Below the pieces are notes generated by a model. The model worked only from the letters and a program-made list of their open reading frames with translations, had not been told where the DNA came from and searched no databases. The position numbers and the translations under genes are program-made. This document shows positions 3,001 to 63,691 of a stretch of DNA of 64,000 nt, one piece after another. This stretch comes from an uncultured Bacteroidales bacterium. GTDB taxonomy: Bacteria; Bacteroidota; Bacteroidia; Bacteroidales; FEN-979. Each line of letters starts with the position of its first letter. The first letter of the stretch is position 1. The stretch spans positions 169,518 to 233,517 of the forward strand of contig CAJBYO010000029.1 in assembly GCA_903959905.1 (NCBI GenBank). The letters are read 5' to 3'.

Positions 3001-6000
3001 CCCCCTATTGACCCCGATCCCTATTTGATCGTGAGTGTGGCGATATCCGCATCATCCAACCCGGTTTGTCAGGGGATGCCGGTGACGTATGCAGCTACTG
3101 CGGTAAACGGGGGAATTACGCCTTTTTACGAATGGTTTGTAAACGGCATCAGTTCCCAGAACGGAATTAATCCGGCCTTTATTTATACCCCTGCCAACTA
3201 CGACATTATAACGTGCGTTATGACTTCGGATGAAACCTGCACCATAGGAAATCCTGCCACTTCCAATTCCGTGTCAATGCTGGTTGCGAACCCCCAGGTG
3301 GAAGCCACCACCTCAGGCACGCGTTGCGGATATGGTTCTGTAACGCTTTCCGCCTTCGGATCGCCCGGAGCAACGCTCACATGGTACGCAACTCCTATCG
3401 GGGGAACTGTACTGGGAACCGGCTCCATCTTCGATACACCGGCAATCGCGGTAACCACAACCTTTTATGTTAGTGCTGCTTATGCCGGTTGCGAATCATC
3501 ACGTGTACCCACAGTTGCCTTCGTTACTCCTGCTGACGCGATTTATGCGACTGCAACCCCGTCTGTGATCTGTGCAGGGCAAAGTAGTGTTCTGAATGTA
3601 ACCCAGTCAGGTTCTAATAACAGTTATACATATACCTGGACCGACGGAACTGCCTGCATTAATGGACAATCCGTCAGTGTAACGCCACAGGCAACCACCA
3701 TGTATACGGTGACAGGAACCGACGGTAGTTGTGTCGCCACAGCTTCGGTAGTGGTTACGGTCAATCCAACGCTGATTGTCAGCGTATACATCTCGGCTTC
3801 AGCCAACCCGGTGATGGCCGGCACCCCGGTGACCTTAATGGCCACAGTGGTGCCTGTAGGATTAAACTCGTCTTACCAATGGATGAAGAATGGAATTAGT
3901 ATCTCCGGAGCCACCACTGTCAATTACACCTATGTCCCGGAGAACAATGACATGCTTGCCTGTATGATTACTTTCACTGAGAACTGTGTAAGCGGTAACC
4001 CCGTTGTGTCCAATACGGTTACTATGACAGTACTGCCTGCAATGACCTTGTCATTTAACATGGTCCCGGAATGCACCTATAATTTCATTTCAGTCAGTGT
4101 AGCCGGTGGAAATCCGCCATACCAATATACATGGAGCAATGGGGCAACAACTTATTACCAGTACCTGACAGCAGGAACCTATACAGTATCGGTGACGGAT
4201 GCCAATAACGTCACAGTCGCCAGCCCCTGTACTGTTGTTACCCTGGATTGTGATTTCGGAGATGCCAAAGAACCTTTGTATCATACCTATCATGGAAGTA
4301 ACGGTCCGCGCCATGCCATATCAGGATTAAAGCTCGGGATGTTCATTGATACGGAAACCGATGGTCAGCAATCTTTATTTGCCGACGGTGACGACACAAA
4401 TGGTACAATTCCGGATGACGAAGATGGCATTAATGGCCCTGGGTCAGGTGCCTTTACCCAGGTCAGCACCGGCACGAACATGCTTTTATTTACAACCTAT
4501 AACAATTTGAGCCAGACGGCATACCTGCAGGGTTGGATTGATTTTGACGGGGACGGCATAATGGATCCCGGAGAACAGATTATAACAAACCAACCGATCC
4601 CACAGGGGCCTTTCAGCGGCAACATAGTTTTTACCGTGCCCCCCTTATCAAATCCGCTGTTTTCCATTGCCAGGTTCAGGCTGAGTACGACGTATAACCT
4701 GTCATTTACAGGATTGGCCCCGGACGGCGAGGTGGAAGATTATTATATTTATATTGACAACGTCCCGACACCAACCCTGGATTACGGTGATGCACCCGAC
4801 AACGGCAACTTTCAGTATAATACACTGAACGTGAATGATGGTGCCCGCCATTTCAGCGATTGTCATGTAAGGCTAGGCACATTGACTGATGCCGAACCGG
4901 ATGGGCTGCAAACAATCATGGCCAACGGTGACGGGAGTGATGAGGATGGGGTGGTCTTTCCATCCTCCTTCTCTGCAACCAACAACATCATCACGATTTA
5001 TCCGCATAACGACCTGTTGAACGGTACGGTATATCTGAACGGATGGATGGACTTCAACCAGGATGGAATCTGGGGAAATTCTCCGAATGAACATTTCCTG
5101 GTTGAATATCAGATCCCATACAGTGGTGCCACCTGCTGTTATGATCCGCTTCACCCGGGATGGCTTTTAAACGTACCAGTCCCCCTGCCTTTAATGGCCA
5201 GCGGCTGCATGTACGCCCGGTTCAGGATCAGCGACACCCCCGGTGTGGGACCATCGCAGCCGTCAGGAATTCCCGTAACGATAGGGGAGGTTGAAGATTA
5301 CAGGGTTTGTCTTAATTCCTGTCCTGCTGCCTGTGAAAGCTTTGATGACGGCACCAGCAATTTCATGACCAGCAACGACGGTGCGGTCAGTAATGGCAAC
5401 CTTGTTATTACAACCCCCGGATCTGGTGGATATACTGGCGACAAAGGATTAAAAGTGACAGATATTTCCGGTTCCACATGGATTTACAACAATTCCACGG
5501 ATTATAGCGGGAATTACCTGTTATGTGATAACAATTGTCTTTGCTGGGATATCAACATGCTTGAAAATGATCAGAGTTATTATCCCAGTATATTTATTTT
5601 CCGGGGATTTAATACATCTCTGCCTGTTGGCCCATCCAATCCGCAGTATATGGCACGGTTCACGTCTTCCTCCCTGATCGGTCTGGATAGGTGGGCACAT
5701 ACGTGTGCAAGGATTCAGCCCTCTGCAGGGAATGATCCGCCATTAAGCCAGGAAGGAACATGGACCTGGAATAATTACCCGGGATCTAATCCCCCGGACT
5801 GGAATAACTTTATAAGCGACATCGGCGGAATCATGTTCCGGGTTGATGTTACAGGATGGGGGGGGGCGGAATCTTTCATCCTTGACAGCATCTGCCTGAG
5901 CCCCTGTGTGACTGATACGGTTACACTGACCGTAAATTCCCTGCCTTGTTCCAATGTCAATATTAATGCGACACCCATGGACATTCATGGAAACGGTTCC

Positions 6001-11914: not shown

Positions 11915-11916
11915 CC

Positions 11917-12000
11917 GTCACCCGTCACCTGTCACGCGTCACGCGTCACGCGTCACCTTTCACGCGTCACTTGTCACTTGTCACTTTGGTCCCGTCATCT
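11917..12000. repeat. 7-bp tandem array, GTCAnnn family (about 10 units plus 2 degenerate)
   Basis: Units read gtcaccc gtcacct gtcacgc x3 gtcacct ttcacgc gtcactt x3. The array starts 3 nt after the GT39 stop and fills the convergent spacer. Its degenerate end overlaps the last codons of fumC. Confidence 0.9.
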
Positions 12001-19451: not shown

Positions 19452-20582
19452 ATGAAGAAACTTGCAGCATTTTTATTCATCTGTTCTGTGCTGGCATCAT
19501 GTGTGAACAGTAAAGACCAGTTTAAATTATCAGGGAGTGTTAAGGGCATTGATACCGGGATGGTTTTCTTGCAGAAATATAACGAGGAAGGGTGGGTAAC
19601 TGCCGATTCTGCCAAACTGAACAAAGGGGAATTTGCCTTCACCGGCAAGGTTGACTTCCCTGAAATGTGGCATGTTACCATGTTTGACGGACAGGTATTG
19701 GTACCGGTTTTTATGGAAAATGCAAAAATTGATCTTCAGATTTTTCCTGACAGCCTTGATAAATCAGTTGTAAAAGGATCTGCCACACACGACTTTTACC
19801 AGTCATACCTGGCATCCATTGCGCCAATCAACACAAAGCAGGAAGAGGCATACCTGGAATATAAAAAGGCAAGGGAATCAGGCGATACGCTGGGAATGGA
19901 GCATAATGATTCCATCATCACAGCACTTGACGGAGAACTTAAAAACCAGCTAACCACTTTTGCAAAAACAAACAATAAAACAGTTGTTTCGCCCTATCTT
20001 ATCATGCGGGAGAGCTGGCAGTATGAACTTCCTGAACTGGAGGAAATCAGCAGCGTGATGGATACCAGCCTGAACCGTTCACAATACCTGGCAGCCTTAA
20101 AGAAACGGGTTGAAATCCTGAAGAGTGTGGAAGTCGGACAAATGGCACCCGATTTTACCATGAACGACACCACCGGAAAACCAATCACCCTCTCATCATT
20201 GAAGGGGAAAATCCTGCTTGTTGATTTCTGGGCATCATGGTGCGGCCCCTGTCGCGGAGAAAATCCCAATGTAGTAAAAGCCTACCAGGCTTACAATAAA
20301 AAGGGGTTTGACATACTTGGCTGTTCGTTTGATAAAAGCCACGAAAAATGGCTTGCAGCCATTGCGGAAGATCACCTGACCTGGACCCATGTCTCTGATT
20401 TAAAATACTGGGGCAATTCCGCCGGGAAACTTTACGGTGTCAAATCAATCCCAGCCAATGTGCTTCTTGACAAAGATCAGAAAATTATCGGCCGCAACCT
20501 GCGCGGTGAAGACCTGATGAAAAAACTGGAGGAAGTGCTGGGGCCGGCAACGCCCGTCAAGAAGGTTGGGAAAAGGAAATAA
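19452..20582 (+). CDS. TlpA-family thiol:disulfide oxidoreductase lipoprotein (DUF4369-like N-domain plus thioredoxin fold)
   Basis: Start moved to MKKLAAFLFICSVLASC (lipobox). Thioredoxin-fold active site FWASWCGPCRGENP. Confidence 0.78.
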   Translation: MKKLAAFLFICSVLASCVNSKDQFKLSGSVKGIDTGMVFLQKYNEEGWVTADSAKLNKGEFAFTGKVDFPEMWHVTMFDGQVLVPVFMENAKIDLQIFPDSLDKSVVKGSATHDFYQSYLASIAPINTKQEEAYLEYKKARESGDTLGMEHNDSIITALDGELKNQLTTFAKTNNKTVVSPYLIMRESWQYELPELEEISSVMDTSLNRSQYLAALKKRVEILKSVEVGQMAPDFTMNDTTGKPITLSSLKGKILLVDFWASWCGPCRGENPNVVKAYQAYNKKGFDILGCSFDKSHEKWLAAIAEDHLTWTHVSDLKYWGNSAGKLYGVKSIPANVLLDKDQKIIGRNLRGEDLMKKLEEVLGPATPVKKVGKRK

Positions 20583-20687
20583 TGATGGAATGCAAACAAT
20601 GCAGGCAATGCAAACAATGAATGCAATGTAAACAATGAATGCAATGTAAACAATGCAGACAATGCAGGCAATGCAAACAATGAATGA
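20581..20687. repeat. 9-bp tandem array, AATGnAnnn family (11-12 units), forward arm of an inverted pair
   Basis: Units read aatgcaaac aatgcaggc aatgcaaac aatgaatgc aatgtaaac aatgaatgc aatgtaaac aatgcagac aatgcaggc aatgcaaac aatgaatga. The first unit overlaps the TAA stop (20580-82) of the TlpA gene. Confidence 0.9.
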
Positions 20688-20852
20688 AATATTAACTGAT
20701 TGACCGCAATCATACCTGTCAAGTTACTTTTAATCTTTAATGACGGTGTTATATCTAAATCTAACTGCCAGATTTTCAAAATAAATAATAAAACCACGAA
20801 GGCGATGAAGGACATACGAAGGCGCCAAAGATGTCTCACATTATAATTAAAC

Positions 20853-20892
20853 TCTTTGTGCGACTTTGTGTGGACTTTGTGCGACTTTGTGG
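20853..20892. repeat. 10/11-bp tandem repeat CTTTGTG(C/TG)GA x4 inside the inverted-array pair
   Basis: Sequence ctttgtgcga ctttgtgtgga ctttgtgcga ctttgtgg. Confidence 0.8.
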
Positions 20893-21024
20893 TTATAACA
20901 TTGACATACAATTCTTTACTGCCAGATAAATGGTGTTCAGTAACGGTTGCTGGTACGATTCCGATCAATCAAAAATATTATAAGCAAATAACATTTATCA
21001 TCATGACATTTACTATATTCCTTA

Positions 21025-21072
21025 CATTGTTTACATTGCCTGCATTGCATTCATTAATTACATTGTTTGCAT
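21025..21072. repeat. 9-bp tandem array, reverse complement of the 20581-20687 family (5-6 units), reverse arm
   Basis: Units read cattgttta cattgcctg cattgcatt cattaatta cattgtttg cat. Their reverse complements are the words aatgtaaac and aatgcaggc of the left arm. Confidence 0.85.
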
Positions 21073-26746: not shown

Positions 26747-29700
26747 TTGCTGGACTTAGTGAAGAAAAAGAATTTATACGCTCTCTTATGTTTAGCCGTC
26801 CTGGTTACCCTGCGTATCCCGGTTTTCTCCGGAGAAACAGCTGGTAATTTTGTCATGGATGGCATCTTTGTCATGTCAGCCCCCGACAGCCTGAAAAAAG
26901 GTGACCCCGGGTCGCTGAGATACCCCTTTAGCGACGAAACAGTCATGCCCGGGTCGGGGAAAGAGAATCCCATGTACCTGAAGAATCCGGCCAATATCAA
27001 AACGGTGGTTGAATATGACCCCGTTTCACGCCAGTATTATTACACCTACCGGATCGGGGAAACCGTTTACAGGATACCCACCACCATGTCGTTTGACGAA
27101 TTCCAGAACGAAGACATGCAGACCATGATAAACCGCTACTGGAAAGAACGTTCGGAGGCGGCGACCATGGACAACTCCAAGGGGATCATTCCAAAGATAC
27201 GCATCCCGGGAAAAGTATTTGAAACGATTTTTGGCAATAATACCGTTGATATCCGCCCGCAGGGATCGGCGGAAATTGATTTCGGCATCGTGTCGAACCG
27301 CCGCGACGACCCCATGCTCAGCACCCGCCAGCGCAGGCAGACCAATTTCGATTTCAACGAGAAGATCCAGATGAATGTGGTGGCCAAGATCGGCGACAAA
27401 ATCGAGTTCAAAATCAATTACAACACAGAGGCCACGTTTGATTTTGAGAATAAGCTCAAGCTGAAATACGAGGGCAAGGAAGACGACATCATCCAGTTGA
27501 TCGAGGCCGGAGACGTGAACCTGCCGCTGAATACCACGCTCATCAAGGGAACTGAAAGTCTTTTCGGTGTGAAAACCAAACTGCGTTTCGGGAGGCTTAC
27601 AGTAACTGCCTTATACTCTCAACAGAAAAGCGAGACCAAGAACATTGTGGTACAGGGTAATGCCCAAACCCAGAAGTTCACCATCAGGGCCGATGATTAC
27701 GAAGAGAACAAGCACTTCTTTATCGGCCAGAATTTCCGGACCACCTTCAGGGAAGCCACCAAAAAATTACCGGTCATCACCTCCAACGTCAACATTCTGA
27801 AAATTGAGGTCTGGGTGACCAACATCGGCGCTGCCGTGACCGAAAACCGCAATATTATTGCGTTTATGGACCTTGGTGAAAGCAAGCCCTACAATACCAG
27901 GCTTTTCACAGGCGATCCGAACCGTAAATTTCCTTCCAACAACTCCAACAACCTTTTCCCGGTGCTGATGCCAACGGCGGTTGACACAGCCAAGGTGCGC
28001 AACATCAACACCGTGAGCAGTTACCTTACCGGCTCACCGTTCTTTATGACTCCCGGCGAGGATGTGGTGAAGATTGAAAGTGCGCGCAAACTGCTCCCGT
28101 CAGAGTTCAGCTATAATCCCAAACTTGGATTTATCTCACTGAACACAGCGCTGAACTCAGACCAGACCCTCGCCATCGCCTACCAGTACCAGGTGGTTGG
28201 CGACCCGGTAGTATACCAGGTGGGTGAATTTTCCGACCAGGGGATCATTTCTCCTAACTGCCTTGTTGTTAAGCTGTTGAAGAGCCCTTCGCTGAACACA
28301 AGGGTTCCGACATGGAACCTGATGATGAAAAACGTTTATGCCCTCGGCGCTTACCAGCTCCAGCCTGCTGATTTTACGCTCAATATCCTCTATTCGGGCA
28401 ATGCCAACGGTGTGCCAACTGCTTACTTGTCAGAAGGCCGCATTAAGGGAGTTCCACTGGTGAGGGTGCTGAACCTTGATAACCTCAACCAGCAGATGAA
28501 CCCTCCGGGCGACGGGATGTTTGACTTTATCGACAACGCGACAACACAGGGCGGTACAGTGCAGTCATCCAACGGAAGGATTTTCTTCACGGTGCTTGAG
28601 CCATTCGGGCAAGACCTGCGGGATTCGATTTTTGATCCGGCCAATCCGAAAGCATCACTTGAAATGGCCGATAAATACTGCTTTGATTCCCTGTATACCA
28701 TGACAAAATCCATGGCCAGGCAGTATCCCGATAAAAATAAATTTGTCCTTGACGGCTTCTATAAGTCCTCAGCAGGTTCTGAAATTTCCCTGAACTCGCT
28801 GAATGTACCTCCCGGGTCAGTGAAAGTTACCGCCGGCGGGGTGTTGTTGCAGGAAAATGTTCATTACACCGTTGACTATACACTTGGAAGGGTCAGGATC
28901 ATCAATGAGGGAATCCTTGCTTCGGGCACTCCCATTAACATTTCGCTTGAAAGCAATGAGATGTTCAATGTGCAGACAAAGCGGCTGATGGGTGCCCATC
29001 TTGACTACAAGATCAACAAGGACTTTGTTGTCGGAGCTACCATCCTGAACCTGAATGAGCGCCCGCTTACGCAAAAAGTTAATTACGGCGACGAGCCGAT
29101 GTCGAACACCATCTGGGGACTTAACCTTTCATACCGCACACAGTCGAGGCTGATTACGCGCTTCGTGGATGCATTGCCTTTCATCACCACCAAGGCGCCA
29201 TCGTCCGTTGCAGTAGATTTTGAGTTTGCCCAGTTCATTCCAGGCCATTCAAAATCCATTGGAAAAGCAGGAACCACTTACATTGACGATTTTGAGGGAG
29301 CCAAATCCACCATCGACCTGAAGAATATTTCAAACTGGTACCTGTCAAGCACTCCACAGGGCCAAACCACCTCCCGGATGTTTCCCGAGGCTGCAGCCGG
29401 TTCGGGACTTACTTACGGTTACAACAGGGCCAAACTTGCATGGTATATCATTGACCCGTTGTTCTATGATAAAAATACCACCCTGCTGCCTCCCAATGTA
29501 TCCAACCGCGAATTATCCAATCAGTACGTCCGGCAGGTGTGGGAAACGGAGATCTTCCCGAACAAGCAGCCTTTAAACGGTGTTCCTGTTAACCTGGCTG
29601 TTCTGAATATGGCCTATTATCCGAGTGAGCGGGGATCATACAACTACGACATTAAGCCCACGTCCGTGTCGAGGGGGCTAAACGCCGACGGAACGCTGGC

Positions 29701-32700
29701 GGCACCGGAAACCCGCTGGGGTGGAATCATGCGAAAGGTGGAGACCACCGATTTTGATGCAACCAACATCCAGTACATTGAATTCTGGATGATGGACCCG
29801 TTCATCTATGATTCTACAAATACCGGGGAACTCTATTTTAACCTTGGCGATGTTTCGGAAGACATCCTTCGCGACGGGCGAAAGAGTTTCGAGAACGGGT
29901 TGCCGACAACCGCGCTGGTGAAAGATGTTGACACCACCATCTGGGGGCGTGTTCCAACCATGCAGGCCCTGGTGGATGCATTTGATAACACCCCGGCCTC
30001 CAGGCCTTTCCAGGATATCGGATATGACGGGTTGTCGGATGTGGAAGAAATTTCCTTCTTTGACACGAGTTATGTCAACGTTGTCAGGAATACATTCGGG
30101 GCGAATTCCGGAGCATATCAGGCAGCTTCCACCGACCCATCTGCGGATGATTTTCACTATTTCAGGGGCTCTGATTACGACAAAAATGCAAACTTCTCAA
30201 GCGTTCTGAACCGGTATAAAAAATACAACGGACCTGAAGGAAACAGCCCGACAGCTTCACAGTCACCGGAAAATTATCCTACAATTGCCACCACCATCCC
30301 CAACATGGAGGACATCAATAAGGACAATACCCTGAGTGAGTCAGAGCGCTATTACCAGTACATTGTCCAGTTGCGCCCGGAGCTCATGAAGCCCGGAAAG
30401 AATTATATCACCAATGTTTACCATGCAATGGATATCCCGCTGGCCGACGGGACACGCGGAAATGTGAACTGGTACCAGTTTAAAATTCCTATCCGCACGC
30501 CGGACCAGACTGTTGGAAATATCAACGATTTCACCTCCATTCGTTTCATGAGGATGTTCTTCAAGAATTTCCCCCGCCCGGTCGTATGCCGCTTTGCCAC
30601 ACTGGAGTTGACCCGTGGCGAGTGGAGGAATTACAACTACAGCCTCCTTGCCCCTGGTGAATACATTCCTGAGGCCACCCAAAACCAGACCCAGTTTGAT
30701 ATTGCTACGGTGAGCCTGGAGGAAAACGGCAGCAAACAACCCGTTCCTTACGTTATGCCTCCGGGTATCCAGCGTGAGACAAACTGGGGATCAACCAACA
30801 TGCAGAAGCTCAACGAGCAATCCATGTCGTTCAAGGTGTGTAACCTCGTTGACGGAGATGCACGGGCCGCCTATAAAACCACTGAATTTGACTTCCGCCA
30901 GTTTAAACGTCTCCAGATGTTTGTTCATGCCGAACAGTCAATCCGTAACGAAAATCTTAAAACCGGCGACCTTACCATCCTGATGCGCATCGGTTCCGAC
31001 TTTACAGACAATTACTATGAGTATGAGATCCCGCTTTCTTTTACCGAGTGGGGAACCCAGGCAGGCAACCCCGACGCCATCTGGCCTGTGGCCAACGAGT
31101 TCAATGTTGACCTTGAGCGGCTTGTGCAGGTGAAGTACAACCGGCTTGTTGCGATGCAGGACAAAGGGTTGGAACTTACATCGTCAACCCCCTATTCGGA
31201 ATATGACGGCAAGAACAGGATTACAGTGGTCGGGTCTCCCACCATCAGTGATGTGAGGGCCATCATGATCGGCATAAGGAACCCCAAGAAGAGCACCCAG
31301 TCGGCCGACGACGACGGCCAGGCGAAGTGCGCAGAGATCTGGGTGGATGAACTGAGGTTGTCAGATTTTAATAAAAACGGTGGCTTTGCTGCCACCGCGC
31401 GTGTTGCTGTTGAACTTGCCGATCTTGGCCGGGTTCAGTTCACCGGCACCTACAGCAGTTCGGGATTCGGAACCCTGGAGCAGAAACAGACCCAGCGCCC
31501 GATGGAGTCGGTACTTACCTTCGGGTTTGATACGGATCTTGAACTGGGTAAATTCTTCCCTGCCAAGGCCGGCATCCGCATCCCGATGCACTTTGACTAT
31601 TCCATGATGCAGATCCGTCCGAAGTACGATCCGCTGAACCCCGACTTATACCTTAAAGATGTGATCAATGCCTTTGACAACAAGCATCAGCAGGATTCAA
31701 TCAAGCAGATCACGGAGGGGTACACGCAGACCAAGAACTTCAACCTGATGAACGTCAGGAAAGACCGTACAGGAACTAAGAAGCCGAGGATTTATGACAT
31801 TGAGAACTTCAATGCCAGCTATGCCTATTCTGAAATTTTCCACCGGGATGTTGACGTTTCCTACGACCTGAAAAAGAAGTACACAGGAGGGCTTGGATAT
31901 ACCTTTGCAGCCCAGCCGAAAAACGTACTGCCTTTCTCCCGGATCAGGGTTTTTAGCAGGTCAAAGGCCTTTGCGCTCATCAAAGATTTTAACTTCTATT
32001 ACCTTCCCAAATCCTTTACCTTCCGGACCGACATGAACCGGGAGTATAATGAAAAGCAGTTCAGGAATAAGAGCCGTGCCATTGTTCCGATGGAGACCTT
32101 CTATATCAAGCGCTGGGACTGGAGCCGTACTTTCGACCTGAAATATGATTTCGCGAAATCGCTCAGGATATCTTTTATTGCCAATACCCAGGCATTTGTG
32201 AATGAGCCCCCGGGCCAGATTGACCGTTCAAACCGTGACCAGGTTTGGAGTGAACTTTTCGCCTTCGGAACAAAAAACAACTATAACCAGGGAATGAATA
32301 TTACATGGGATGTCCCGATCGGGAAAATCCCGATGCTTGACTTCATCACGGTGCAGGCAGGATATGCGTCAACATACCGCTGGAACGCATCCCCCACATC
32401 CATCCAGGCACAATACGGCAACTCCATAGAAAACTCAAACTCCCAGACACTGAATGGTGGTTTGAACATGGTGACCCTGTACAACAAAATACCGTATCTT
32501 AAGAAGATCAACCAGGCCACTACCAGCAACCGGGGCAACAGGCCGGAGCCACCAAAGAACAAGAATGTGGATAAGCAGGACAGCATTAAACTGCTGCCAA
32601 ACCGTCCGCCGATCGGGAAAATCATCCTTGACGGAACCCTGCGGTTCCTCATGGGTATCAGAACTGCCAAGTTTACCTATACCCAGGGCAACGGAACCAC

Positions 32701-33997
32701 GCTGCCCGGATTCAAACCCGAACCGGTTGCCCTTGGAAACAACTGGAGTTCCAATGCTCCGGGTCTTGGATTTGTCTTTGGCGGCCAGAGCGATATTGCA
32801 CGCACCTCATCTGAAAACGGATGGCTCACCCGCGACACTATGCTGAATGTGCCGACCCTCAGAAAGTTCAATGAGAACCTGAACATTATGGTGAGTATAG
32901 AACCGTTAAAGGACCTTCGCATTGAGGTGGTTGCCAACAAGCAGTACTCAAAATCTCACCAGGAATATTACAAGGCTAATTCTGATGGTAATTTCAGGTC
33001 TTATTCGCCTATGGATCAAGGCAGTTACACGGTTTCTTTTATCATCATAGGCAGTTCGTTTGACAGTGACAACGGTTTCGGGCAATCGCCGACATTTGAA
33101 AAAATGAAGCAATACCGGTACCAGATTGCGCAACGGTATGCTGCCGCCAACCCGAATTCTGTCGGGATCAACGACTCAACCGGCTACCCGGTGGGGTACG
33201 GGCCAACAAACCAGGAGGTGCTTACATCGGCCTTCCTGGCAGCCTATGCCAATAAGGATCCGGCGAAGATGAAGCTCACAGCATTCCCCTCCATCCCTTT
33301 ACCTAACTGGAGGTTAACCTATGACGGACTTGCCAAACTTAAGATATTCAAAACATGGCTGCGCACCCTCACGGTGACCCATGCTTACCTCTCTACCTAC
33401 AGTGTTGGCAATTTTAACTCCAATATTCTATATGGCGAGCAAAACGGTATGCCGGTTGTTATGGACAATGCAGGAAACTACATCCCGAAGGAACAAACAA
33501 CCGTGGTTTCTGTTACTGAACAGTTTAACCCCCTGATCAAGTTCGACCTCGGGTTCCTCAACAGTCTGCTTGCCAGCGTTGAACTAAAGCGGTCGCGGAA
33601 TCTTTCACTCAGCTTTGTCAACAACCAGTTGACGGAGATCAGCAGCAATGAATTTATCATTGGCATGGGCTACAGGCTCAAGGGAATCCGGTTTAATATC
33701 TCCGGTGTTCTGGGGGGTGGCAAAAAGACCCGTACCAACAGCGATCTCAACCTGAAACTTGATTTCTCAATCCGCAAGAATAAAACTGTTCTCCGCCGTG
33801 TTGACCAGGATATCAACCAGATATCAGTTGGCCAGCAGGTAATGACACTCAATTTCTCGGCTGATTACAACCTGAGCACCCGGTTCAATGTCAGGTTCTA
33901 TTTTGACAAGGTGATCAATACACCTTACGTGTCAAACCAGTACCGGACATCCAATACAAAGGGTGGTATTGCGTTGCGGTTTACATTGGGGCAGTAA
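26747..33997 (+). CDS. sprA: T9SS outer-membrane translocon / cell surface protein SprA
   Basis: About 2,410 aa with a signal-like (M/V)KKKNLYALLCLAVLV. The size, beta-rich composition and ruvA-sprA-gcvH neighbourhood match what I recall for SprA in Bacteroidota. The real start may be the GTG at 26759 rather than the TTG at 26747. I could not run an alignment. Confidence 0.85.
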   Translation: MLDLVKKKNLYALLCLAVLVTLRIPVFSGETAGNFVMDGIFVMSAPDSLKKGDPGSLRYPFSDETVMPGSGKENPMYLKNPANIKTVVEYDPVSRQYYYTYRIGETVYRIPTTMSFDEFQNEDMQTMINRYWKERSEAATMDNSKGIIPKIRIPGKVFETIFGNNTVDIRPQGSAEIDFGIVSNRRDDPMLSTRQRRQTNFDFNEKIQMNVVAKIGDKIEFKINYNTEATFDFENKLKLKYEGKEDDIIQLIEAGDVNLPLNTTLIKGTESLFGVKTKLRFGRLTVTALYSQQKSETKNIVVQGNAQTQKFTIRADDYEENKHFFIGQNFRTTFREATKKLPVITSNVNILKIEVWVTNIGAAVTENRNIIAFMDLGESKPYNTRLFTGDPNRKFPSNNSNNLFPVLMPTAVDTAKVRNINTVSSYLTGSPFFMTPGEDVVKIESARKLLPSEFSYNPKLGFISLNTALNSDQTLAIAYQYQVVGDPVVYQVGEFSDQGIISPNCLVVKLLKSPSLNTRVPTWNLMMKNVYALGAYQLQPADFTLNILYSGNANGVPTAYLSEGRIKGVPLVRVLNLDNLNQQMNPPGDGMFDFIDNATTQGGTVQSSNGRIFFTVLEPFGQDLRDSIFDPANPKASLEMADKYCFDSLYTMTKSMARQYPDKNKFVLDGFYKSSAGSEISLNSLNVPPGSVKVTAGGVLLQENVHYTVDYTLGRVRIINEGILASGTPINISLESNEMFNVQTKRLMGAHLDYKINKDFVVGATILNLNERPLTQKVNYGDEPMSNTIWGLNLSYRTQSRLITRFVDALPFITTKAPSSVAVDFEFAQFIPGHSKSIGKAGTTYIDDFEGAKSTIDLKNISNWYLSSTPQGQTTSRMFPEAAAGSGLTYGYNRAKLAWYIIDPLFYDKNTTLLPPNVSNRELSNQYVRQVWETEIFPNKQPLNGVPVNLAVLNMAYYPSERGSYNYDIKPTSVSRGLNADGTLAAPETRWGGIMRKVETTDFDATNIQYIEFWMMDPFIYDSTNTGELYFNLGDVSEDILRDGRKSFENGLPTTALVKDVDTTIWGRVPTMQALVDAFDNTPASRPFQDIGYDGLSDVEEISFFDTSYVNVVRNTFGANSGAYQAASTDPSADDFHYFRGSDYDKNANFSSVLNRYKKYNGPEGNSPTASQSPENYPTIATTIPNMEDINKDNTLSESERYYQYIVQLRPELMKPGKNYITNVYHAMDIPLADGTRGNVNWYQFKIPIRTPDQTVGNINDFTSIRFMRMFFKNFPRPVVCRFATLELTRGEWRNYNYSLLAPGEYIPEATQNQTQFDIATVSLEENGSKQPVPYVMPPGIQRETNWGSTNMQKLNEQSMSFKVCNLVDGDARAAYKTTEFDFRQFKRLQMFVHAEQSIRNENLKTGDLTILMRIGSDFTDNYYEYEIPLSFTEWGTQAGNPDAIWPVANEFNVDLERLVQVKYNRLVAMQDKGLELTSSTPYSEYDGKNRITVVGSPTISDVRAIMIGIRNPKKSTQSADDDGQAKCAEIWVDELRLSDFNKNGGFAATARVAVELADLGRVQFTGTYSSSGFGTLEQKQTQRPMESVLTFGFDTDLELGKFFPAKAGIRIPMHFDYSMMQIRPKYDPLNPDLYLKDVINAFDNKHQQDSIKQITEGYTQTKNFNLMNVRKDRTGTKKPRIYDIENFNASYAYSEIFHRDVDVSYDLKKKYTGGLGYTFAAQPKNVLPFSRIRVFSRSKAFALIKDFNFYYLPKSFTFRTDMNREYNEKQFRNKSRAIVPMETFYIKRWDWSRTFDLKYDFAKSLRISFIANTQAFVNEPPGQIDRSNRDQVWSELFAFGTKNNYNQGMNITWDVPIGKIPMLDFITVQAGYASTYRWNASPTSIQAQYGNSIENSNSQTLNGGLNMVTLYNKIPYLKKINQATTSNRGNRPEPPKNKNVDKQDSIKLLPNRPPIGKIILDGTLRFLMGIRTAKFTYTQGNGTTLPGFKPEPVALGNNWSSNAPGLGFVFGGQSDIARTSSENGWLTRDTMLNVPTLRKFNENLNIMVSIEPLKDLRIEVVANKQYSKSHQEYYKANSDGNFRSYSPMDQGSYTVSFIIIGSSFDSDNGFGQSPTFEKMKQYRYQIAQRYAAANPNSVGINDSTGYPVGYGPTNQEVLTSAFLAAYANKDPAKMKLTAFPSIPLPNWRLTYDGLAKLKIFKTWLRTLTVTHAYLSTYSVGNFNSNILYGEQNGMPVVMDNAGNYIPKEQTTVVSVTEQFNPLIKFDLGFLNSLLASVELKRSRNLSLSFVNNQLTEISSNEFIIGMGYRLKGIRFNISGVLGGGKKTRTNSDLNLKLDFSIRKNKTVLRRVDQDINQISVGQQVMTLNFSADYNLSTRFNVRFYFDKVINTPYVSNQYRTSNTKGGIALRFTLGQ

Positions 33998-34140
33998 AAA
34001 TTTCTCGCAGATTTTCGCAGATTTTTCACGCAGATTTGAGCAGATTTTTTATCTTCCTGAAAACAAGAAATTCCCTTAATAAATCATTTTTTTTCTGCGA
34101 AAATCTGCGTGAAAAATCTGCGAAAATCTGCGAGAAATTT
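33998..34140. repeat. Perfect 38-bp inverted repeat built from about 11-bp TCGCAGATTTT units, 67-nt spacer
   Basis: Left arm 33998-34035 is aaatttctcgcagattttcgcagatttttcacgcagat. Right arm 34103-34140 is its exact reverse complement. The left arm starts on the base after the sprA TAA (33995-97). Confidence 0.9.
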
Positions 34141-34187
34141 TTCCCTGATCTCCGTGAAAAATTTAACATACATTCCCAAAATAATCG

Positions 34188-42598: not shown

Positions 42599-42609
42599 GC
42601 GCCTGATTC

Positions 42610-42728
42610 GTCACTCGTCATTTGTCATTCGTCATTCGTCATTCGTCACCCGTCACCTGTCACCCGTCACCCGTCACCTGTCACCTGTCACCCGTCACGC
42701 GTCACCCGTCACGCGTCACGCCTCATCC
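42610..42728. repeat. 7-bp tandem array GTCAnnn (17 units), grading from GTCATTC into GTCACCC/GTCACGC
   Basis: Units read gtcactc gtcattt gtcattc x3 gtcaccc gtcacct gtcaccc x2 gtcacct x2 gtcaccc gtcacgc gtcaccc gtcacgc x2 ctcatcc. The array lies between convergent ltaE and thiL and contains the thiL stop and its last 4 codons. Confidence 0.92.
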
Positions 42729-43782
42729 CATCCCATCCCTGTGCCGTGATCGGAACCGCCTTCCCATCCGGAGTGATCATATACTTACCCTCTGCCGCTG
42801 CAGTCATATGTCCGATAATGCTGATGCCTGCAATATCTTTTATTTTTTCGTAGTCATCCTGCTTCACGGTGAAAAGCAGTTCATAATCCTCGCCGCCGCT
42901 CAAGGCAGCAACGCTGGGAATGATCTTGTACTCCTTGGCAACTTCGCGCGTATGGGCATCCATGGGGATTTTTCCTTCAAAGAGTTTGCACCCGACTCCC
43001 GAATGTTTGCAGATATGCAGGATCTCGGAGGCAAGCCCGTCGGAAATATCGATCATGGAAGTTGGTCTGACCCCGATGCCGATCAGCAGGTTTCTTACGT
43101 CGGTGCGGGCTTCGGGCCGCAGCTGACGGCCAACCTGGTAATCAAAACCGGTTAATTCGGGCTGCATGTTCGGATCAACCTGGAATACTGACTTTTCGCG
43201 TTCCAGCACCAACAGTCCAATATAGGCGCTACCCAGGTCGCCGGTCACACAAAGAAGGTCGCCCGGCCTGGCCCCGCTTCGGTAAGTAACATCCTCTTTG
43301 TTCGCAATGCCGGTTACTGTGACGGAGATCATAAGGCCTTTCACATTTGAACTGGTGTCGCCACCAACCAGGTCAACTTTATATTTATCGCATGCCATGA
43401 TGATGCCGGCATAGAGTTCATCAAGCGCTTCGGCAGAAAACCTGCTGGAAACGGCCAGGGAGACGGTCATCTGCATGGGAATGCCGTTCATGGCGGCAAT
43501 ATCAGAGATGTTGACCACTGCAGCCTTGTACCCGAGATGTTTGAAAGGCATGTAGGTAAGGTCAAAATGGATCCCTTCAACCAGCAAGTCTGTTGACATC
43601 AGCATGACCTTGTCTCCCAGATCAAACACAGCGGCGTCATCACCAATGCCTTTAAGGGTTTCTGGATGATAGTGCTTTACGTTCTTTGTAAGCCTGTCAA
43701 TCAGCCCAAATTCGCCCAGTTCAGAAAGTGAGGTAAGTTTCGGAGCGGTGGGGGCTGTTTTTTTATTTTTATTTTCGTACAT
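42709..43782 (-). CDS. thiL: Thiamine-monophosphate kinase
   Basis: GEFGLIDRL...GIGDDAAVF and an AIR-synthase-like fold (GGDTS, GGEDYELLFT). Start moved to MYENKNKK at 43782, because the upstream 34 codons of the ORF are tandem-repeat sequence. Confidence 0.88.
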   Translation of the reverse strand: MYENKNKKTAPTAPKLTSLSELGEFGLIDRLTKNVKHYHPETLKGIGDDAAVFDLGDKVMLMSTDLLVEGIHFDLTYMPFKHLGYKAAVVNISDIAAMNGIPMQMTVSLAVSSRFSAEALDELYAGIIMACDKYKVDLVGGDTSSNVKGLMISVTVTGIANKEDVTYRSGARPGDLLCVTGDLGSAYIGLLVLEREKSVFQVDPNMQPELTGFDYQVGRQLRPEARTDVRNLLIGIGVRPTSMIDISDGLASEILHICKHSGVGCKLFEGKIPMDAHTREVAKEYKIIPSVAALSGGEDYELLFTVKQDDYEKIKDIAGISIIGHMTAAAEGKYMITPDGKAVPITAQGWDGMRRDA

Positions 43783-50039: not shown

Positions 50040-50046
50040 CGATCTT

Positions 50047-50142
50047 GTCCACCAGTCCGCCAGTCTGCCAGTCCGCCTGTCCGCTTGTCCGCCTGTCCGC
50101 TTGTCCGCCTGTCCGCTTGTCCGCTCACCCGCTCACCCATCC
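50047..50142. repeat. 8-bp tandem array GTCCGCnn (12 units)
   Basis: Units read gtccacca gtccgcca gtctgcca (gtccgcct gtccgctt)x3 gtccgctc acccgctc acccatcc. The array lies upstream of the sufB promoter. Confidence 0.92.
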
Positions 50143-58695: not shown

Positions 58696-58790
58696 GGGTC
58701 CGGCAGTTTTTTAGGAGTTTTACGTGACCATAAAACTACGAATAAATTTGACAGTCCACCCCTGATTTTTCACCATTCCATCGATTTCCC

Positions 58791-58902
58791 GTCACCCGTC
58801 ACGCGTCACCCGTCACCCGTCACGCGTCACGCGTCACCCGTCACCTGTCACCTGTCACGCGTCACGCGTCACCCGTCACGCGTCACGCGTCACCCGTCAC
58901 CA
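58791..58902. repeat. 7-bp tandem array GTCAnnn (16 units)
   Basis: Units read gtcaccc gtcacgc gtcaccc x2 gtcacgc x2 gtcaccc gtcacct x2 gtcacgc x2 gtcaccc gtcacgc x2 gtcaccc gtcacca. The array ends 8 nt before the sufS -7 box. Confidence 0.92.
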
Positions 58903-61848: not shown

Positions 61849-61918
61849 GGAATATCTGTTAAAATCTGTAAGTATCTCTAAAAACGGTTTATTTCTTTTT
61901 CACAATCCTGCTTCTCTG

Positions 61919-61990
61919 CATTCTTTTCATTGCCTGCATTGCCTTCATTGCCTGCATTGCTTGCATTGTTTGCATTGTCAGCATTGTCTT
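61919..61990. repeat. 9-bp tandem array CATTGnnnn (8 units), reverse-complement orientation of the AATGnAnnn family
   Basis: Units read cattctttt cattgcctg cattgcctt cattgcctg cattgcttg cattgtttg cattgtcag cattgtctt. The array lies between the padR stop and the pspC-domain gene start, and its last unit reaches the padR stop codon. Confidence 0.9.
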
Positions 61991-62319
61991 CATCCTTTCC
62001 CGATAATCTTCTCCACCGAACCGATCAGATCCTGCCAGTCAGCCTTGAGGCCAGCCAGGGCTTGCAGCCCGGTCTCGGTTATCTGGTGGTACTTTCTTGG
62101 CGGGCCTGATTTTGATTCCTCCCAGCGATAGGCCGTCAGCCCGTCGTTTTTCAGCCTTGTCAGCAAAGGGTACAAAGTTCCTTCAACAACAATGAGTCTG
62201 GCTTCCTTTAACCTTGAAATGATGTCGGAAGCGTATGCGTCCTGCTCAGCGATGATGGCCAGGATACAGAGTTCAAGGACTCCTTTTCGCATCTGTGCGT
62301 TTTGGTTTTCTGTATTCAT
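61990..62319 (-). CDS. PadR family transcriptional regulator
   Basis: Winged-helix PadR pattern: LELCILAII...DAYASDIISRL......VVEGTLYPLLTRLKNDGL..YRWEES..GPPRKYHQITETG. Confidence 0.88.
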   Translation of the reverse strand: MNTENQNAQMRKGVLELCILAIIAEQDAYASDIISRLKEARLIVVEGTLYPLLTRLKNDGLTAYRWEESKSGPPRKYHQITETGLQALAGLKADWQDLIGSVEKIIGKG

Positions 62320-62323
62320 GCGG

Positions 62324-62331
62324 CAAAGATA
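62324..62331 (-). promoter_or_regulatory. -7 box (TAnnTTTG) for padR, implying a leaderless or near-leaderless mRNA
   Basis: The minus strand reads tatctttg and ends 4 nt before the padR ATG (62319). Confidence 0.4.
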
Positions 62332-62339
62332 ATATAAAA

Positions 62340-62365
62340 CATGGTACTATGCAATACATGGTACT
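62340..62365 (-). promoter_or_regulatory. Candidate PadR operator: two CATGGTACT 9-mers 17 bp apart within an imperfect 21-bp palindrome
   Basis: catggtact occurs at 62340-48 and 62357-65. GTACTATGCAATACATGGTAC (62344-64) is self-complementary at 16 of 21 positions. The site lies between the -7 box and the expected -33 position of padR. Confidence 0.35.
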
Positions 62366-62390
62366 AAAAATTATGAAATATTAACAAATG

Positions 62391-62558
62391 GCGGACGAGT
62401 GGACGAGTGGACGAGCGGACTGGCGGACAAGCGGACAAGTGGACAGGCGGACGAGCGGACGAACGGACAAGCGGATAAGCAGACGGGCGGATAGGTGGAT
62501 GAGTGGACAAGTGGACAAGTGGACAAGTGGACAAGTGGACAAGTGGACAAGTGGACAA
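62391..62558. repeat. 8-bp tandem array G(C/T)GGACnn (21 units, last 7 perfect GTGGACAA), reverse complement of the GTCCGCnn family
   Basis: Hand-phased units from gcggacga (62391) to gtggacaa x7 (62503-62558). This is the left arm of an inverted pair with 63080-63191. Confidence 0.92.
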
Positions 62559-62674
62559 GTGGACAAGGGAAGTGATACTAAGTTATTGGGAGGCCAGAGA
62601 AAGTGAAAATGTTGATAACTTTTTCAGATTTGCATATTACCTTTTTACGTTTTTTGGATTAAGCAGGAAAAATC

Positions 62675-63055
62675 ATGAAGACTCATAAAGATTTAGAAGT
62701 TTGGAAACTTAGCATGACTCTGGTAAAGGATGTTTATCATTTGACCTGCAATTTCCCTAAAACTGAAATATTTGGACTGACAAGTCAAATTCGAAGGGCT
62801 GCTGTATCTGTTCCAGCGAATATAACAGAAGGTTCAGCACGAATGAGTTCAAAAGAGCTCAGGTATTTTCTCAGGATATCATTCGCAAGCCTGGCTGAAC
62901 TGGAAACATTGATAACCCTTTCAAGAGACCTTGAATTTCTTTCTATTCAGGATTATAATATCCTTCACCCTAAAATAAAGATGATTACCTGTCAATTAAG
63001 TAGCTTAATACGATCCATAAACGATAAAATTCAACAAAATGAAACTAAGGATTAG
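62675..63055 (+). CDS. Four-helix-bundle protein (TIGR02436 / 23S rRNA-intervening-sequence protein family)
   Basis: HKDLEVWKLSMTLVKDVYHLTCNFPKTEIFGLTSQIRRAAVSVPANITEG..R.S.KE...FL.I..AS..ELET is the characteristic pattern of this family. The gene looks visibly more AT-rich than its neighbours. Confidence 0.78.
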   Translation: MKTHKDLEVWKLSMTLVKDVYHLTCNFPKTEIFGLTSQIRRAAVSVPANITEGSARMSSKELRYFLRISFASLAELETLITLSRDLEFLSIQDYNILHPKIKMITCQLSSLIRSINDKIQQNETKD

Positions 63056-63079
63056 CTTCAAATATACCCATCTCTACCC

Positions 63080-63191
63080 GTCCGCCCGTTCACTCGTCCG
63101 CATGTCCACTCGTCCACTTGTCCGCTCGTCCGCTCGTCCGCTTGTCCCCTTGTCCTCCCGTCCGCCCGTCCGCCTGTCCACCTGTCCGCCA
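63080..63191. repeat. 8-bp tandem array GTCCnCnn (14 units), right arm of the inverted pair
   Basis: Units read gtccgccc gttcactc gtccgcat gtccactc gtccactt gtccgctc x2 gtccgctt gtcccctt gtcctccc gtccgccc gtccgcct gtccacct gtccgcca. The array ends 7 nt before the sufE -7 box. Confidence 0.9.
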
Positions 63192-63198
63192 TTTTCCC

Positions 63199-63206
63199 TA
63201 CCTTTG
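63199..63206 (+). promoter_or_regulatory. -7 box (TAnnTTTG) upstream of sufE
   Basis: tacctttg lies 22 nt upstream of the ATG at 63228. Confidence 0.5.
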
Positions 63207-63227
63207 CCCCCCAAACCCCCCTCACCC

Positions 63228-63653
63228 ATGACCATCAACGAAACCGAAGCCCAGATCATCAGCGAATTTGCCATGTTTGATGACTGGATGGATAAATATA
63301 ATTACCTGATTGAACTTGGAAAGTCATTGCAGATCATTTCCGAGGAATACCGTACCGACCAGTACCTGATCACAGGGTGCCAGTCAAAGGTTTGGCTTCA
63401 CGCTTCTTTAACCGAAGGAAAAGTTGTGTTCACGGGCGACAGCGACGCCATCATCACCAAAGGCATTGTGAGCCTGCTGATTCGCGTTCTTTCCGGTCAG
63501 ACACCTGACGACATCCTCCGGGCCAAACTGGAATTCGTTGATCAGATAGGATTGCAGGAGCATCTTTCTCCGACACGCAGCAACGGGCTTTCTTCCATGA
63601 TCAAACAGATGAAGTTGTATGCGACGGTGTTTAAGATGACGAGGGAGAAGTGA
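63228..63653 (+). CDS. sufE: SufE-family sulfur acceptor protein
   Basis: MTINETEAQIISEFAMFDDWMDKYNYLIELGK, active-site context ITGCQSKVWL, LSPTRSNGLSSM. Start moved from 63039, because the first 63 codons of that ORF are tandem-array sequence. Confidence 0.85.
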   Translation: MTINETEAQIISEFAMFDDWMDKYNYLIELGKSLQIISEEYRTDQYLITGCQSKVWLHASLTEGKVVFTGDSDAIITKGIVSLLIRVLSGQTPDDILRAKLEFVDQIGLQEHLSPTRSNGLSSMIKQMKLYATVFKMTREK

Positions 63654-63691
63654 CAGGTGACAGGTGACAGGTGACAGGTGACAGGTGCCAA
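63650..63691. repeat. 7-bp tandem array GTGACAG (5 perfect plus 1 degenerate), reverse complement of GTCACCT
   Basis: (gtgacag)x5 followed by gtgccaa. The first unit contains the sufE TGA stop (63651-53). Confidence 0.9.

Follow-up and report, generated by a model that had tools for sequence, protein, structure and literature searches.

Intervening sequences (IVSs) that carry an open reading frame (ORF) of the S23p type are found within the 23S rRNA of Leptospira, Coxiella burnetii, Xanthomonas and Brucella. In the present study a gene of the same family, PF05635/TIGR02436, was analysed in a 64-kb stretch of DNA from an uncultured Bacteroidales bacterium (this whole stretch is hereafter called the window), where it encodes a four-helix-bundle (4HB) protein and lies between padR and sufE, enclosed by two long arrays of 8-nt units that are reverse complements of each other. 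Gene and arrays together are termed the cassette and the arrays its arms, and L-numbers denote homologous or orthologous loci that were retrieved for comparison. The cassette is here interpreted as probably being a resident copy of a widespread IVS-type 4HB cassette outside rRNA, composed of an AT-rich gene and inverted tandem-array arms that are unusually long at this site.

The only experimentally tested precedent for the arms of a 4HB cassette is the 23S IVS of Coxiella burnetii. Its S23p ORF stands behind 3-4 tandem GACAGAT heptamers whose copy number varies between strains; a stem of 28 bp is formed by the termini, and the RNase III cut falls where the first repeat begins. Excision by RNase III has been demonstrated only for Coxiella and other rRNA IVSs (PMC4990558). 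The cassette and this IVS have in common the family PF05635, complementary termini that enclose the ORF, and an arm length that varies between strains. The cassette differs in that it does not reside in an rRNA helix, being flanked by padR and sufE and matching no Rfam family (none was found across the 64-kb window, and none in the cassette even at E up to 1), in that its arms measure 112-176 nt compared with about 28 bp and have a unit of 8 nt, and in that it apparently possesses a promoter of its own.

A second described system is that of the diversity-generating retroelements (DGRs), whose protein Avd is homologous to the 4HB protein in fold and family. As cited in bioRxiv 10.1101/2023.10.23.563531, Avd forms a pentamer and carries positive charge; the same paper describes the DGR RNA as having stem-loops to which Avd binds and, around the template, an upstream/downstream duplex. 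The Xanthomonas relative XCC0516 is pentameric as cited in PMC4990558. In contrast to Avd, the 4HB protein scores below the equivalog cutoff and is encoded among genes for an M16 peptidase, SufS, a PspC-like protein, PadR and SufE; neither a reverse transcriptase nor a direct repeat of the template/variable repeat (TR/VR) type was found in the immediate neighbourhood of the cassette.

Dispersed heptamer repeats constitute a third point of comparison. They have been described in Xanthomonas (GGGAATC), Nostoc (GGGGAYT), cyanobacteria (short tandemly repeated repetitive sequences, STRR) and Beggiatoaceae (TAACTGA) (PMC4692102, PMC4679880), with the TAACTGA repeats occurring in both Beggiatoaceae and cyanobacteria (PMC4679880). 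A Xanthomonas genome contains 186 such intergenic arrays, most often of four units and for the most part situated between aligned ORFs; they form 70-75 closely spaced inverted pairs and vary in length between related species (PMC4692102). In these two papers the repeats are interpreted as G-quadruplex or regulatory elements, and neither a four-helix-bundle gene nor a 23S-IVS gene came up in term searches of the two texts. The gene-less arrays and foldbacks of the window look like the same phenomenon, whereas the arrays of the cassette flank one gene family, have a unit that is own to each cassette and are not rich in G-tracts.

Organization of the cassette

The cassette at the padR-sufE locus consists of the following features, given in positions of the window.

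62391..62566, plus strand: upstream (5′) arm, an 8-mer array of 22 in-register 8-nt units GYGGACnn
62567..62674, plus strand: AT-rich spacer between the upstream arm and the ATG of the 4HB gene, GC 0.345
62675..63055, plus strand: 4HB gene (PF05635/TIGR02436, S23p/Avd-like), 126 aa
63056..63079, plus strand: short spacer of 24 nt from the stop codon of the 4HB gene to the downstream arm
63080..63191, plus strand: downstream (3′) arm, 14 in-register 8-nt units GTCCnCnn, C-rich and G-poor

Read on the coding strand of the 4HB gene, the upstream arm is G-rich and C-poor, and its units run from GCGGACGA and GTGGACGA at the start to eight identical innermost copies of GTGGACAA; the downstream arm begins with GTCCGCCC and ends with GTCCGCCA. 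In their best stretches the two arms are complementary at 71% over 132 nt and at 83% over 63 nt. The interval between them amounts to 512-521 bp, in which the 4HB gene is the sole gene that can be assigned to a family, and the arrays themselves generate several spurious ORFs of 55-72 aa on both strands. A first-pass annotation of this DNA had described the two arrays as reverse complements of each other with a period of 8 nt; complementarity and period were upheld, and the extent of the left array was corrected from 21 to 22 units, its end moving from 62558 to 62566.

Folding of the cassette, which had been proposed as a check, was performed on an 821-nt segment. The minimum-free-energy structure pairs the two arrays with each other, with a free energy of −307.7 kcal/mol for the sense RNA (z = −14.65 against 20 shuffles) and of −153.4 for single-stranded DNA (ssDNA; z = −11.1). 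The layout of the cassette at padR-sufE is real and far beyond chance.

The 126-aa product had been annotated as a TIGR02436-type four-helix-bundle protein, and the profile scores agree, with 115.7 bits for PF05635 (cutoff 33.8) and 108.3 bits for TIGR02436 (cutoff 24). The only other Pfam family matched is PF22296 (bAvd), which stays below threshold (23.2 bits with a cutoff of 40, E 1e-4), as does the DGR Avd equivalog NF033474 (27.5 bits with a cutoff of 80); PHROG 3206, ‘Avd protein of DGR’, is matched at E 8e-11. XCC0516 of Xanthomonas is the sole solved relative (PDB 2GSC, E 7.6e-22, residues 2-115). The family motif R-x3-S-x3-N-x2-E(G) that has been reported (PMC3936711) is present in the 4HB protein, whose conserved residues include Q38, R41, S45, N49, E52, G53 and R56; in an alignment of 25 sequences R41, S45, N49 and G53 were invariant and E52 was nearly so. 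Binding of structured nucleic acid is a probable activity of the protein, judging from its homologues Avd and the pentameric XCC0516. PADLOC returned no assignment to a defence system. PF05635 genes have been reported as CRISPR-associated (PMC3936711, PMC10910872), and a CRISPR array was considered for the arms and ruled out, given that they consist of contiguous 8-nt units without spacers as opposed to CRISPR repeats of 23-50 nt with unique spacers.

The GC content is 0.352 in the 4HB gene and 0.345 in the upstream spacer, compared with 0.51 in padR, 0.48 in sufE, 0.49 in sufS and 0.484 in the window as a whole. The difference in AT content that had been noticed by inspection was therefore borne out by calculation, at 0.35 versus a range of 0.47-0.51 across the neighbours padR, pspC, sufS and sufE. 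The proximal part of the spacer (about 62610-62674) is a block that is conserved, by alignment, in all four lineages that share the cassette at this site, and it contains GTTG at 62611-62614, TACCTTTT at 62638-62645 and then an A-rich leader before the ATG. By resemblance of motifs only, this block seems to be a Bacteroidetes promoter plus leader. A scan for sigma-70 promoters and intrinsic terminators gave counts not above those of shuffled sequence, the model being ill-suited to Bacteroidetes promoters.

Flanking arrays in the PF05635 family

With an E limit of 1e-3, a profile search of the family yielded 37,900 cluster representatives, the clusters being drawn at 50% identity. For a survey of their surroundings, 80 loci encoding relatives of the 4HB protein were taken from species-representative genomes of many phyla, among them Bacteroidota, Proteobacteria, Nitrospirota, Planctomycetota, Cyanobacteria, Ignavibacteriota, Omnitrophota, Saccharibacteria and Firmicutes. 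Culturable species with a homologue in this set include Myroides marinus DSM 23048 (L007, for which no arrays were called), Winogradskyella pacifica (L036) and Adhaeretor mobilis (L019). An inverted-arm score was obtained by local alignment of the 250 nt upstream of each gene with the reverse complement of the 250 nt downstream, with a threshold of 16. This threshold was reached at 41 of 76 loci and at none of 386 shifted control positions in the same loci, where the maximum was 12.5 (Mann-Whitney p = 9e-27). The aligned arms are tandem repeats, mostly of heptamers such as GTGATTA, GACGTAA, GGTTTTC, GTTTCGA and AGATGCC, with the complements on the opposite side.

Tandem Repeats Finder located arrays on both flanks of the gene in 57 of the 80 loci and on a single flank in 16, and 7 loci had none on either side; periods of 7 or its multiples were commonest, followed by 8 and 9. 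The density of arrays was 2.30 per kb within 300 bp of the gene versus 0.31 per kb elsewhere in the same loci. Polarity was pronounced: G exceeded C in 54 of 63 upstream arrays and C exceeded G in 56 of 64 downstream arrays, so that both arms had this canonical polarity in 41 of 57 loci and both the opposite one in 2. The same packaging was present in viral contigs, where, among 30 loci (29 with usable flanks), the inverted-arm score was reached in 19/29 and arrays stood on both sides in 17/29. Whether other PF05635 genes are flanked in a similar way had been put forward as a check of the first description, and the answer was strongly positive in bacterial and viral loci alike. Inverted tandem-array packaging is the usual form of the PF05635 family in bacteria and phages.

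A typical arm has 4-5 units (median 4.3-4.6, mode 4-5) and thus about 30 nt, the lower end of this distribution being shaped by the detection threshold. Only 8 of 116 arms have 14 or more units, and the 22 and 14 units in the window rank among the longest. Median distances are 32 nt from the end of the upstream arm to the ATG and 14 nt from the stop codon to the start of the downstream arm. The GC content of the 4HB gene lies below that of its flanks in 76 of 80 loci, with a mean gap of 7 points, and in 59 of 73 loci the gene points the same way as both neighbours (control adjacent pairs are co-oriented in 74%). The conserved 23S motifs that were searched for were absent from all 80 genome loci, which means that the name of a 23S-IVS family fits a small minority of its members; a 16S 3′-end motif occurs in L022, far from the 4HB gene.

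Ten of the 80 loci (L014, L017, L026, L031, L034, L036, L039, L041, L046 and L053) contain two or three 4HB genes in a span of 8 kb; these share one strand, and some of the extra copies are fragments. In five of these loci (L036, L017, L046, L053 and L026) each of the paralogous cassettes has a different arm unit, which suggests that no common terminal sequence is recognised. Period-7 arrays away from the 4HB gene numbered 83 in 496 kb, compared with 24 in 504 kb of pspC loci without a 4HB gene; this density of gene-less arrays, about 3.5 times higher in 4HB loci, is suggestive, although the comparison genomes may carry 4HB genes elsewhere.

Evolution of the cassette at the padR-sufE site

Orthologous regions from four other lineages were found with the PspC-like protein as bait and were compared by tblastn and pairwise alignment. 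In L083, L087 and L084, whose PspC is 70-74% identical to that of the window, the 4HB gene lies between sufE and padR together with GGAC/GTCC 8-mer arrays, which are long in L084 (a match to Logan contig L002), moderate in L087 and decayed to about 3 units in L083. The gene is flipped relative to padR and sufE in L084/L002; window, L083 and L087 share one orientation. The fourth lineage, L086, is an outgroup with a PspC 61-64% identical to the others. It keeps the order sufE-padR-pspC-sufS, and its padR-sufE spacer measures 184 bp and contains neither a 4HB gene nor arrays, so that inspection of this junction in relatives, as the annotation had recommended, did reveal an empty site.

The 4HB proteins of the window, L083, L087 and L084 are 57-69% identical to one another, and those of the other lineages are the best matches of the window protein in a protein database of 5.8 billion sequences. 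Their genes have a GC content at third codon positions (GC3) of 0.30-0.45 across lineages, versus 0.47-0.69 for host genes, and because the low GC3 persists across lineages the AT-richness is maintained and is not the mark of a recent arrival. The recent insertion that the annotation had implied is accordingly not supported, as the cassette is common to at least four lineages with PspC 69-74% identical and is AT-rich throughout.

The length of the arrays has been much less stable. In strain L001, which is 99% identical, the upstream arm is one unit shorter than in the window, and the downstream arm has about 6 units in L084 versus about 12 in L002. Array length is thereby shown to change quickly, repeat units being gained and lost. 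The simplest history is a single insertion between the padR and sufE promoters in an ancestor of the clade, followed by vertical descent with at least one inversion. Recombination between long inverted repeats produces such an inversion, and the polarity from G-rich to C-rich, as seen from the gene, stays the same. The empty site of L086 is too diverged for the insertion junctions to be defined, and no target-site duplication is visible there.

Transfer of arms and gene as a unit

Arm 6-mers were shared in 3 of 4 pairs of loci with proteins more than 70% identical and almost never in more distant pairs. Two of these pairs, L026/L068 and L058/L066, are syntenic, and the shared arms there reflect vertical descent. 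A different situation was encountered in L040 and L049, two Bacteroidales metagenome-assembled genomes (MAGs) with 4HB proteins 90% identical: a segment of about 560 bp, which begins at the upstream arm's outer edge and extends about 45 nt beyond the downstream arm, is 84% identical in nucleotide sequence, and by tblastx nothing else is common to the two loci within 4 kb on either side. Since homology is confined to arms and gene, the cassette with its arms occurs at unrelated sites. A second, internally deleted copy is located at L040:7131-7349, in reverse orientation and 3 kb from the full copy; it retains both AGTGATGR arms and the last ~60 nt of the ORF, which is direct proof that internal deletion can turn a cassette into a gene-less foldback array.

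Further insertions were found at other sites. A cas1 site is filled in L017 and empty in L030, and a second possible flip was noted in this pair. In the distant relative L115 (3540-3990) a different 4HB gene, 38% identical, lies between padR and pspC with CAGAATA/TATTCTG heptamer arms and represents an independent insertion, in the adjacent spacer of that operon; for the definition of its junction only relatives at about 77% nucleotide identity or less were available. The arms are shown to belong to the cassette rather than to the neighbouring genes, because they accompany the family across phyla and phages, follow its phylogeny, move with the gene and are absent from the empty site. The notion of a discrete unit, as first proposed for this locus, has thus gained support from the empty site in L086 and from the homology between L040 and L049 that is limited to arms and gene.

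Neighbouring genes and other arrays in the window

The gene order around the cassette is sufB-sufC-sufD, a mutS2-like gene, an M16 peptidase gene (minus strand), sufS (plus), a pspC-like gene (minus), padR (minus), the cassette and sufE (plus). The cassette thus occupies the gap between the divergent promoters of padR and sufE, both of which genes point away from it, and two regulatory regions adjoin it.

62320..62390, minus strand: padR promoter/operator region with the palindrome GTACCATGTATTGCATAGTAC and TATCTTTG before the ATG, adjoining the left arm on the outside
63199..63206, plus strand: −7-type box of sufE, TACCTTTG, outside the cassette and 7 nt past the right arm

The padR region is intact and is conserved in the relatives, including the one with the empty site. 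The sufE box, whose position 7 nt beyond the right arm had been noted correctly, is likewise intact and is conserved as CAAAGGTA in all relatives with or without the cassette, the empty site included. The cassette had also been thought to separate sufE from the other suf genes, a statement that does not hold, since padR and pspC stand between sufS and sufE in every relative, L086 included. The longest ORF for sufE (63039-63653, 204 aa) starts within the 3′ end of the 4HB gene and traverses the right arm, and this 204-aa version was called in the sister contig L001. The Pfam match and the 141-aa gene call in relatives indicate that the start of sufE is at 63228. Arrays of this kind produce spurious long ORFs such as the 204-aa sufE and could seed false repeat-array calls near PF05635 genes.

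About 17 short-period arrays with periods of 7, 8, 9 and 10 are present in the window, most of them without a 4HB gene. Four of these features are the following.

50046..50138, plus strand: lone array of the cassette 8-mer (TGTCCGCC), about 10 units, directly upstream of sufB
20590-21072: gene-less inverted pair of 9-mers AATGCAnnC and complement, arms of about 66 nt, 74-79% complementarity
33996-34142: gene-less foldback of 10-mers ATTTTCGCAG and complement, 49-nt arms, 96% complementarity, 49-nt loop
22461-22590: gene-less foldback of 7-mers CGATTTA/TAAATCG, 61-nt arms, 8-nt loop, between convergent genes

The polarity of the sufB array relative to sufB equals that of the arms relative to padR and sufE, and another lone TGTCCGCC array was seen in the same strain just past the end of the window (L001:8006-8043). 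The inverted pair at 20590-21072 lies between two co-oriented thiol-peroxidase-like genes and has an AT-rich loop of about 330 nt with an internal CTTTGTGCGA repeated 3.7 times; a profile search of the loop gave no 4HB remnant, and the pair could be a cassette that lost its gene or one with other cargo. Searches for 4HB paralogues or remnants elsewhere in the window, by tblastn and by profile HMM on the six-frame translation, found none, and the gene-less foldbacks there therefore cannot be shown to be decayed cassettes. Two very long ORFs were observed, at 52-7320 (2422 aa) and at 26747-33997 (2416 aa), the second being directly followed by the foldback at 33996-34142, which stands before gcvH.

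A GTGACAG array of 5.4 units at 63650-63687 starts inside the stop codon of sufE. GTGACAC repeated 11.6 times occupies the same position in L084 (2265-2345), making this array conserved in position and unit, and the GTGACAG unit complements the GTCACNC arrays at 11915-11984, 42606-42739 and 58788-58901, the last of which is upstream of sufS. The padR-pspC spacer is filled by a 9-mer array CATTGCnTG (61916-61993), the reverse complement of the unit at 20577-20690; in L002 this spacer has 18 nt between the called genes and contains a short hairpin and no array.

Proposed mechanism

In the interpretation favoured here, the arms would function by pairing with each other. In a transcript spanning both arms, these would pair into a stem exceeding 100 bp whose loop contains the ORF, and by analogy to the Coxiella IVS this stem might be cut by RNase III, whereby the cassette would be excised or insulated from host transcripts. 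The arms would then be a portable double-stranded RNA stem, which is taken as their most likely general function. The tight placement of the arms around the ORF and the co-oriented neighbours imply that most cassettes have no room for a promoter of their own and are transcribed with both arms. At the level of DNA, the complementarity of the arms would explain slippage, the flip in orientation and internally deleted copies. The padR-sufE locus may be a special case, since a promoter of the gene itself seems to lie inside the left arm there; the complete RNA stem would then be confined to read-through transcripts, and DNA-level reasons or protein binding may account for the persistence of the left arm.

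Several observations weigh against this interpretation. The promoter-like block lies between the left arm and the ATG, and no known promoter transcribes both arms here; with padR and sufE pointing away, a single transcript would seldom include both arms. Folding is slightly more favourable for the antisense RNA than for the sense RNA (−314.2 versus −307.7 kcal/mol). In a wobble test of arm mismatches, 72 were G:U-compatible on the sense strand and 125 were A:C, so that no excess of sense G:U and hence no sign of selection on a sense-strand RNA stem was detected; the bias toward A:C stems from an excess of A over T in both arms on the sense strand, and the test leaves the choice between RNA and DNA unsettled. 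All four lineages retain the GGAC/GTCC core of the unit, even though the nearby spacer has diverged and the 4HB proteins are only 57-69% identical, and such conservation suggests sequence-specific recognition and not mere complementarity. Finally, the genome carries many arrays without a 4HB gene, including the 8-mer of the cassette upstream of sufB, and no enzyme able to move the cassette was found.

Alternative explanations

The alternative that survives best is a mobile foldback element acting at the level of DNA, the arms being substrates for transposition or recombination as a cruciform or hairpin, RNA pairing being irrelevant, and gene-less arrays being non-autonomous derivatives as in MITEs (miniature transposable elements with inverted repeats) or eukaryotic Foldback (FB) transposons; this is regarded as possible, though rather improbable. 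FB transposons have long terminal inverted repeats built of short tandem repeats. The arms of the cassette are likewise inverted repeats of tandem units, and copies with and without the coding segment exist (L040:7131-7349), but the cassette is bacterial, has no transposase and shows no recognisable target-site duplication. As to a terminal sequence common to copies within a genome, the paralogues in L036, L017, L046, L053 and L026 differ in their units, whereas the full and deleted copies of L040 have the same unit and the window contains a lone array of the cassette 8-mer at 50046-50138. RAYTs are tyrosine transposases of the IS200/IS605 type, and the repetitive extragenic palindromes (REPs) are single palindromic units. 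The REP/RAYT arrangement is similar in that a small gene stands between inverted short repeats and similar gene-less repeats are scattered in intergenic regions; it differs from the cassette, whose protein has no tyrosine transposase domain, whose repeats are tandem arrays and whose scattered counterparts are mostly of different units. The cassette thus resembles foldback transposons and REP/RAYT in architecture only.

Mobility as DNA would fit the empty sites in L086 and L030 (the latter at the cas1 site of L017), the homology of L040 and L049 that is confined to the unit, the internally deleted copy, the flips in orientation among loci, the three gene-less foldback arrays of the window and the occurrence in viral contigs, as well as the ssDNA fold (z = −11) and the missing wobble signal on the sense strand. 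It is difficult to reconcile with the fact that no transposase or recombinase lies within or beside the cassette, whose neighbours are housekeeping genes, that unrelated arm units in paralogous cassettes of one genome argue against a shared terminal recognition sequence, that no target-site duplication is recognisable and that the cassette has long resided vertically at the padR-sufE site; co-orientation with neighbours and arms set tightly around the ORF are, moreover, expected for a feature of the transcript and not for a DNA transposon. The analogy to FB transposons drawn in the first-pass annotation consequently stands for the inverted arms of tandem repeats and is unsupported for membership of any transposon class, neither a transposase nor a target-site duplication nor an arm sequence shared by paralogues having been found. 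The accompanying remark that such an architecture was not that of any known bacterial element was too strong in view of the Coxiella 23S IVS (PMC4990558) and the inverted pairs of Xanthomonas heptamers (PMC4692102).

It is unlikely, as a second alternative, that the arrays are primarily binding sites for the cassette's own ring-shaped pentamer, which would read about 5 units and thereby regulate or protect its own mRNA or DNA, with complementarity being secondary. A protein that reads tandem units in this manner is TRAP, which reads the GAG repeats of the trp leader. The pentameric homologues XCC0516 and Avd and the typical arm of 4-5 units agree with such a model, as do the binding of RNA stem-loops by Avd, the conserved unit core in the clade and the arm units that follow the phylogeny of the protein, and different units in paralogues would provide orthogonal specificity. 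The unit count does not discriminate, because about 30 nt is also a good substrate size for RNase III and because the detection threshold shapes the lower end of the counts; joint inheritance of arms and gene explains the phylogenetic tracking without binding, and neither the inverted arrangement nor the fixed polarity from G-rich to C-rich is required by binding sites alone.

A programmed invertible switch, in which a phase-variable segment would flip the 4HB gene and direct transcription into sufE or padR-pspC, is highly improbable. Orientation at the same site does differ between window/L083/L087 and L084/L002, a second flip is possible between L017 and L030, and the promoter-like block inside the segment would move with it. 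Nevertheless, no invertase gene is nearby, every assembly shows a single orientation, the flips separate lineages about 30% diverged in protein, as rare homologous recombination between inverted repeats would produce, and the co-orientation with neighbours in 59 of 73 family loci argues against free flipping. Scarcely credible, lastly, is a coincidence, by which the arrays would be ordinary promoter-upstream repeats of padR and sufE, inverted by the divergence of these genes, with a 4HB gene landed between them: the abundance of arrays of period 7-10 in the window (~17, most without a 4HB gene) and the occurrence of the GTCCGCC unit ahead of sufB, with matching polarity toward that gene, speak for it, but this reading is already largely refuted by the family-wide controls (association across phyla versus 0/386) and is contradicted by L086, which retains both promoters yet lacks arrays, by L083, in which the arrays decay together around the gene, and by L040 and L049, in which the arms travel with the gene.

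Conclusions

A published link between PF05635 genes in general and flanking tandem-repeat arms was not found in full-text searches of the literature, a result that subscription journals and database family notes may modify. The gene family and the idea of an IVS-type insert are known, and the form of the cassette and its generality appear to be new; this form is marked by a location outside rRNA, by long inverted arms made of tandem 7-9-mers whose polarity is fixed, and by vertical inheritance over long periods combined with transferability as a unit. A broader proposal, which is put forward only tentatively and is doubtful as a whole, would regard PF05635 cassettes as one pan-bacterial and phage class of foldback elements without a transposase, in which rRNA IVSs would be only the special case noticed first, the heptamer arrays and inverted array pairs of many genomes, such as Xanthomonas GGGAATC, cyanobacterial STRR and the window's gene-less foldbacks, would have descended from cassettes by internal deletion, and the pentamer would read about 5 units of its own arms for RNA processing or mobility.

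PF05635/TIGR02436 is a very large family that has no known function outside DGRs. The fixed packaging, found at some 70% of loci in groups as varied as Proteobacteria, Bacteroidota, Planctomycetota, Cyanobacteria and phages and made up of inverted tandem-repeat arms with strict polarity, an AT-rich interior and co-orientation in strings of genes, offers a first concrete handle on how these genes live in genomes, and it connects three subjects that had been dealt with apart, namely rRNA IVSs, Avd-like proteins and the unexplained excess of heptamer repeats in some bacterial genomes.

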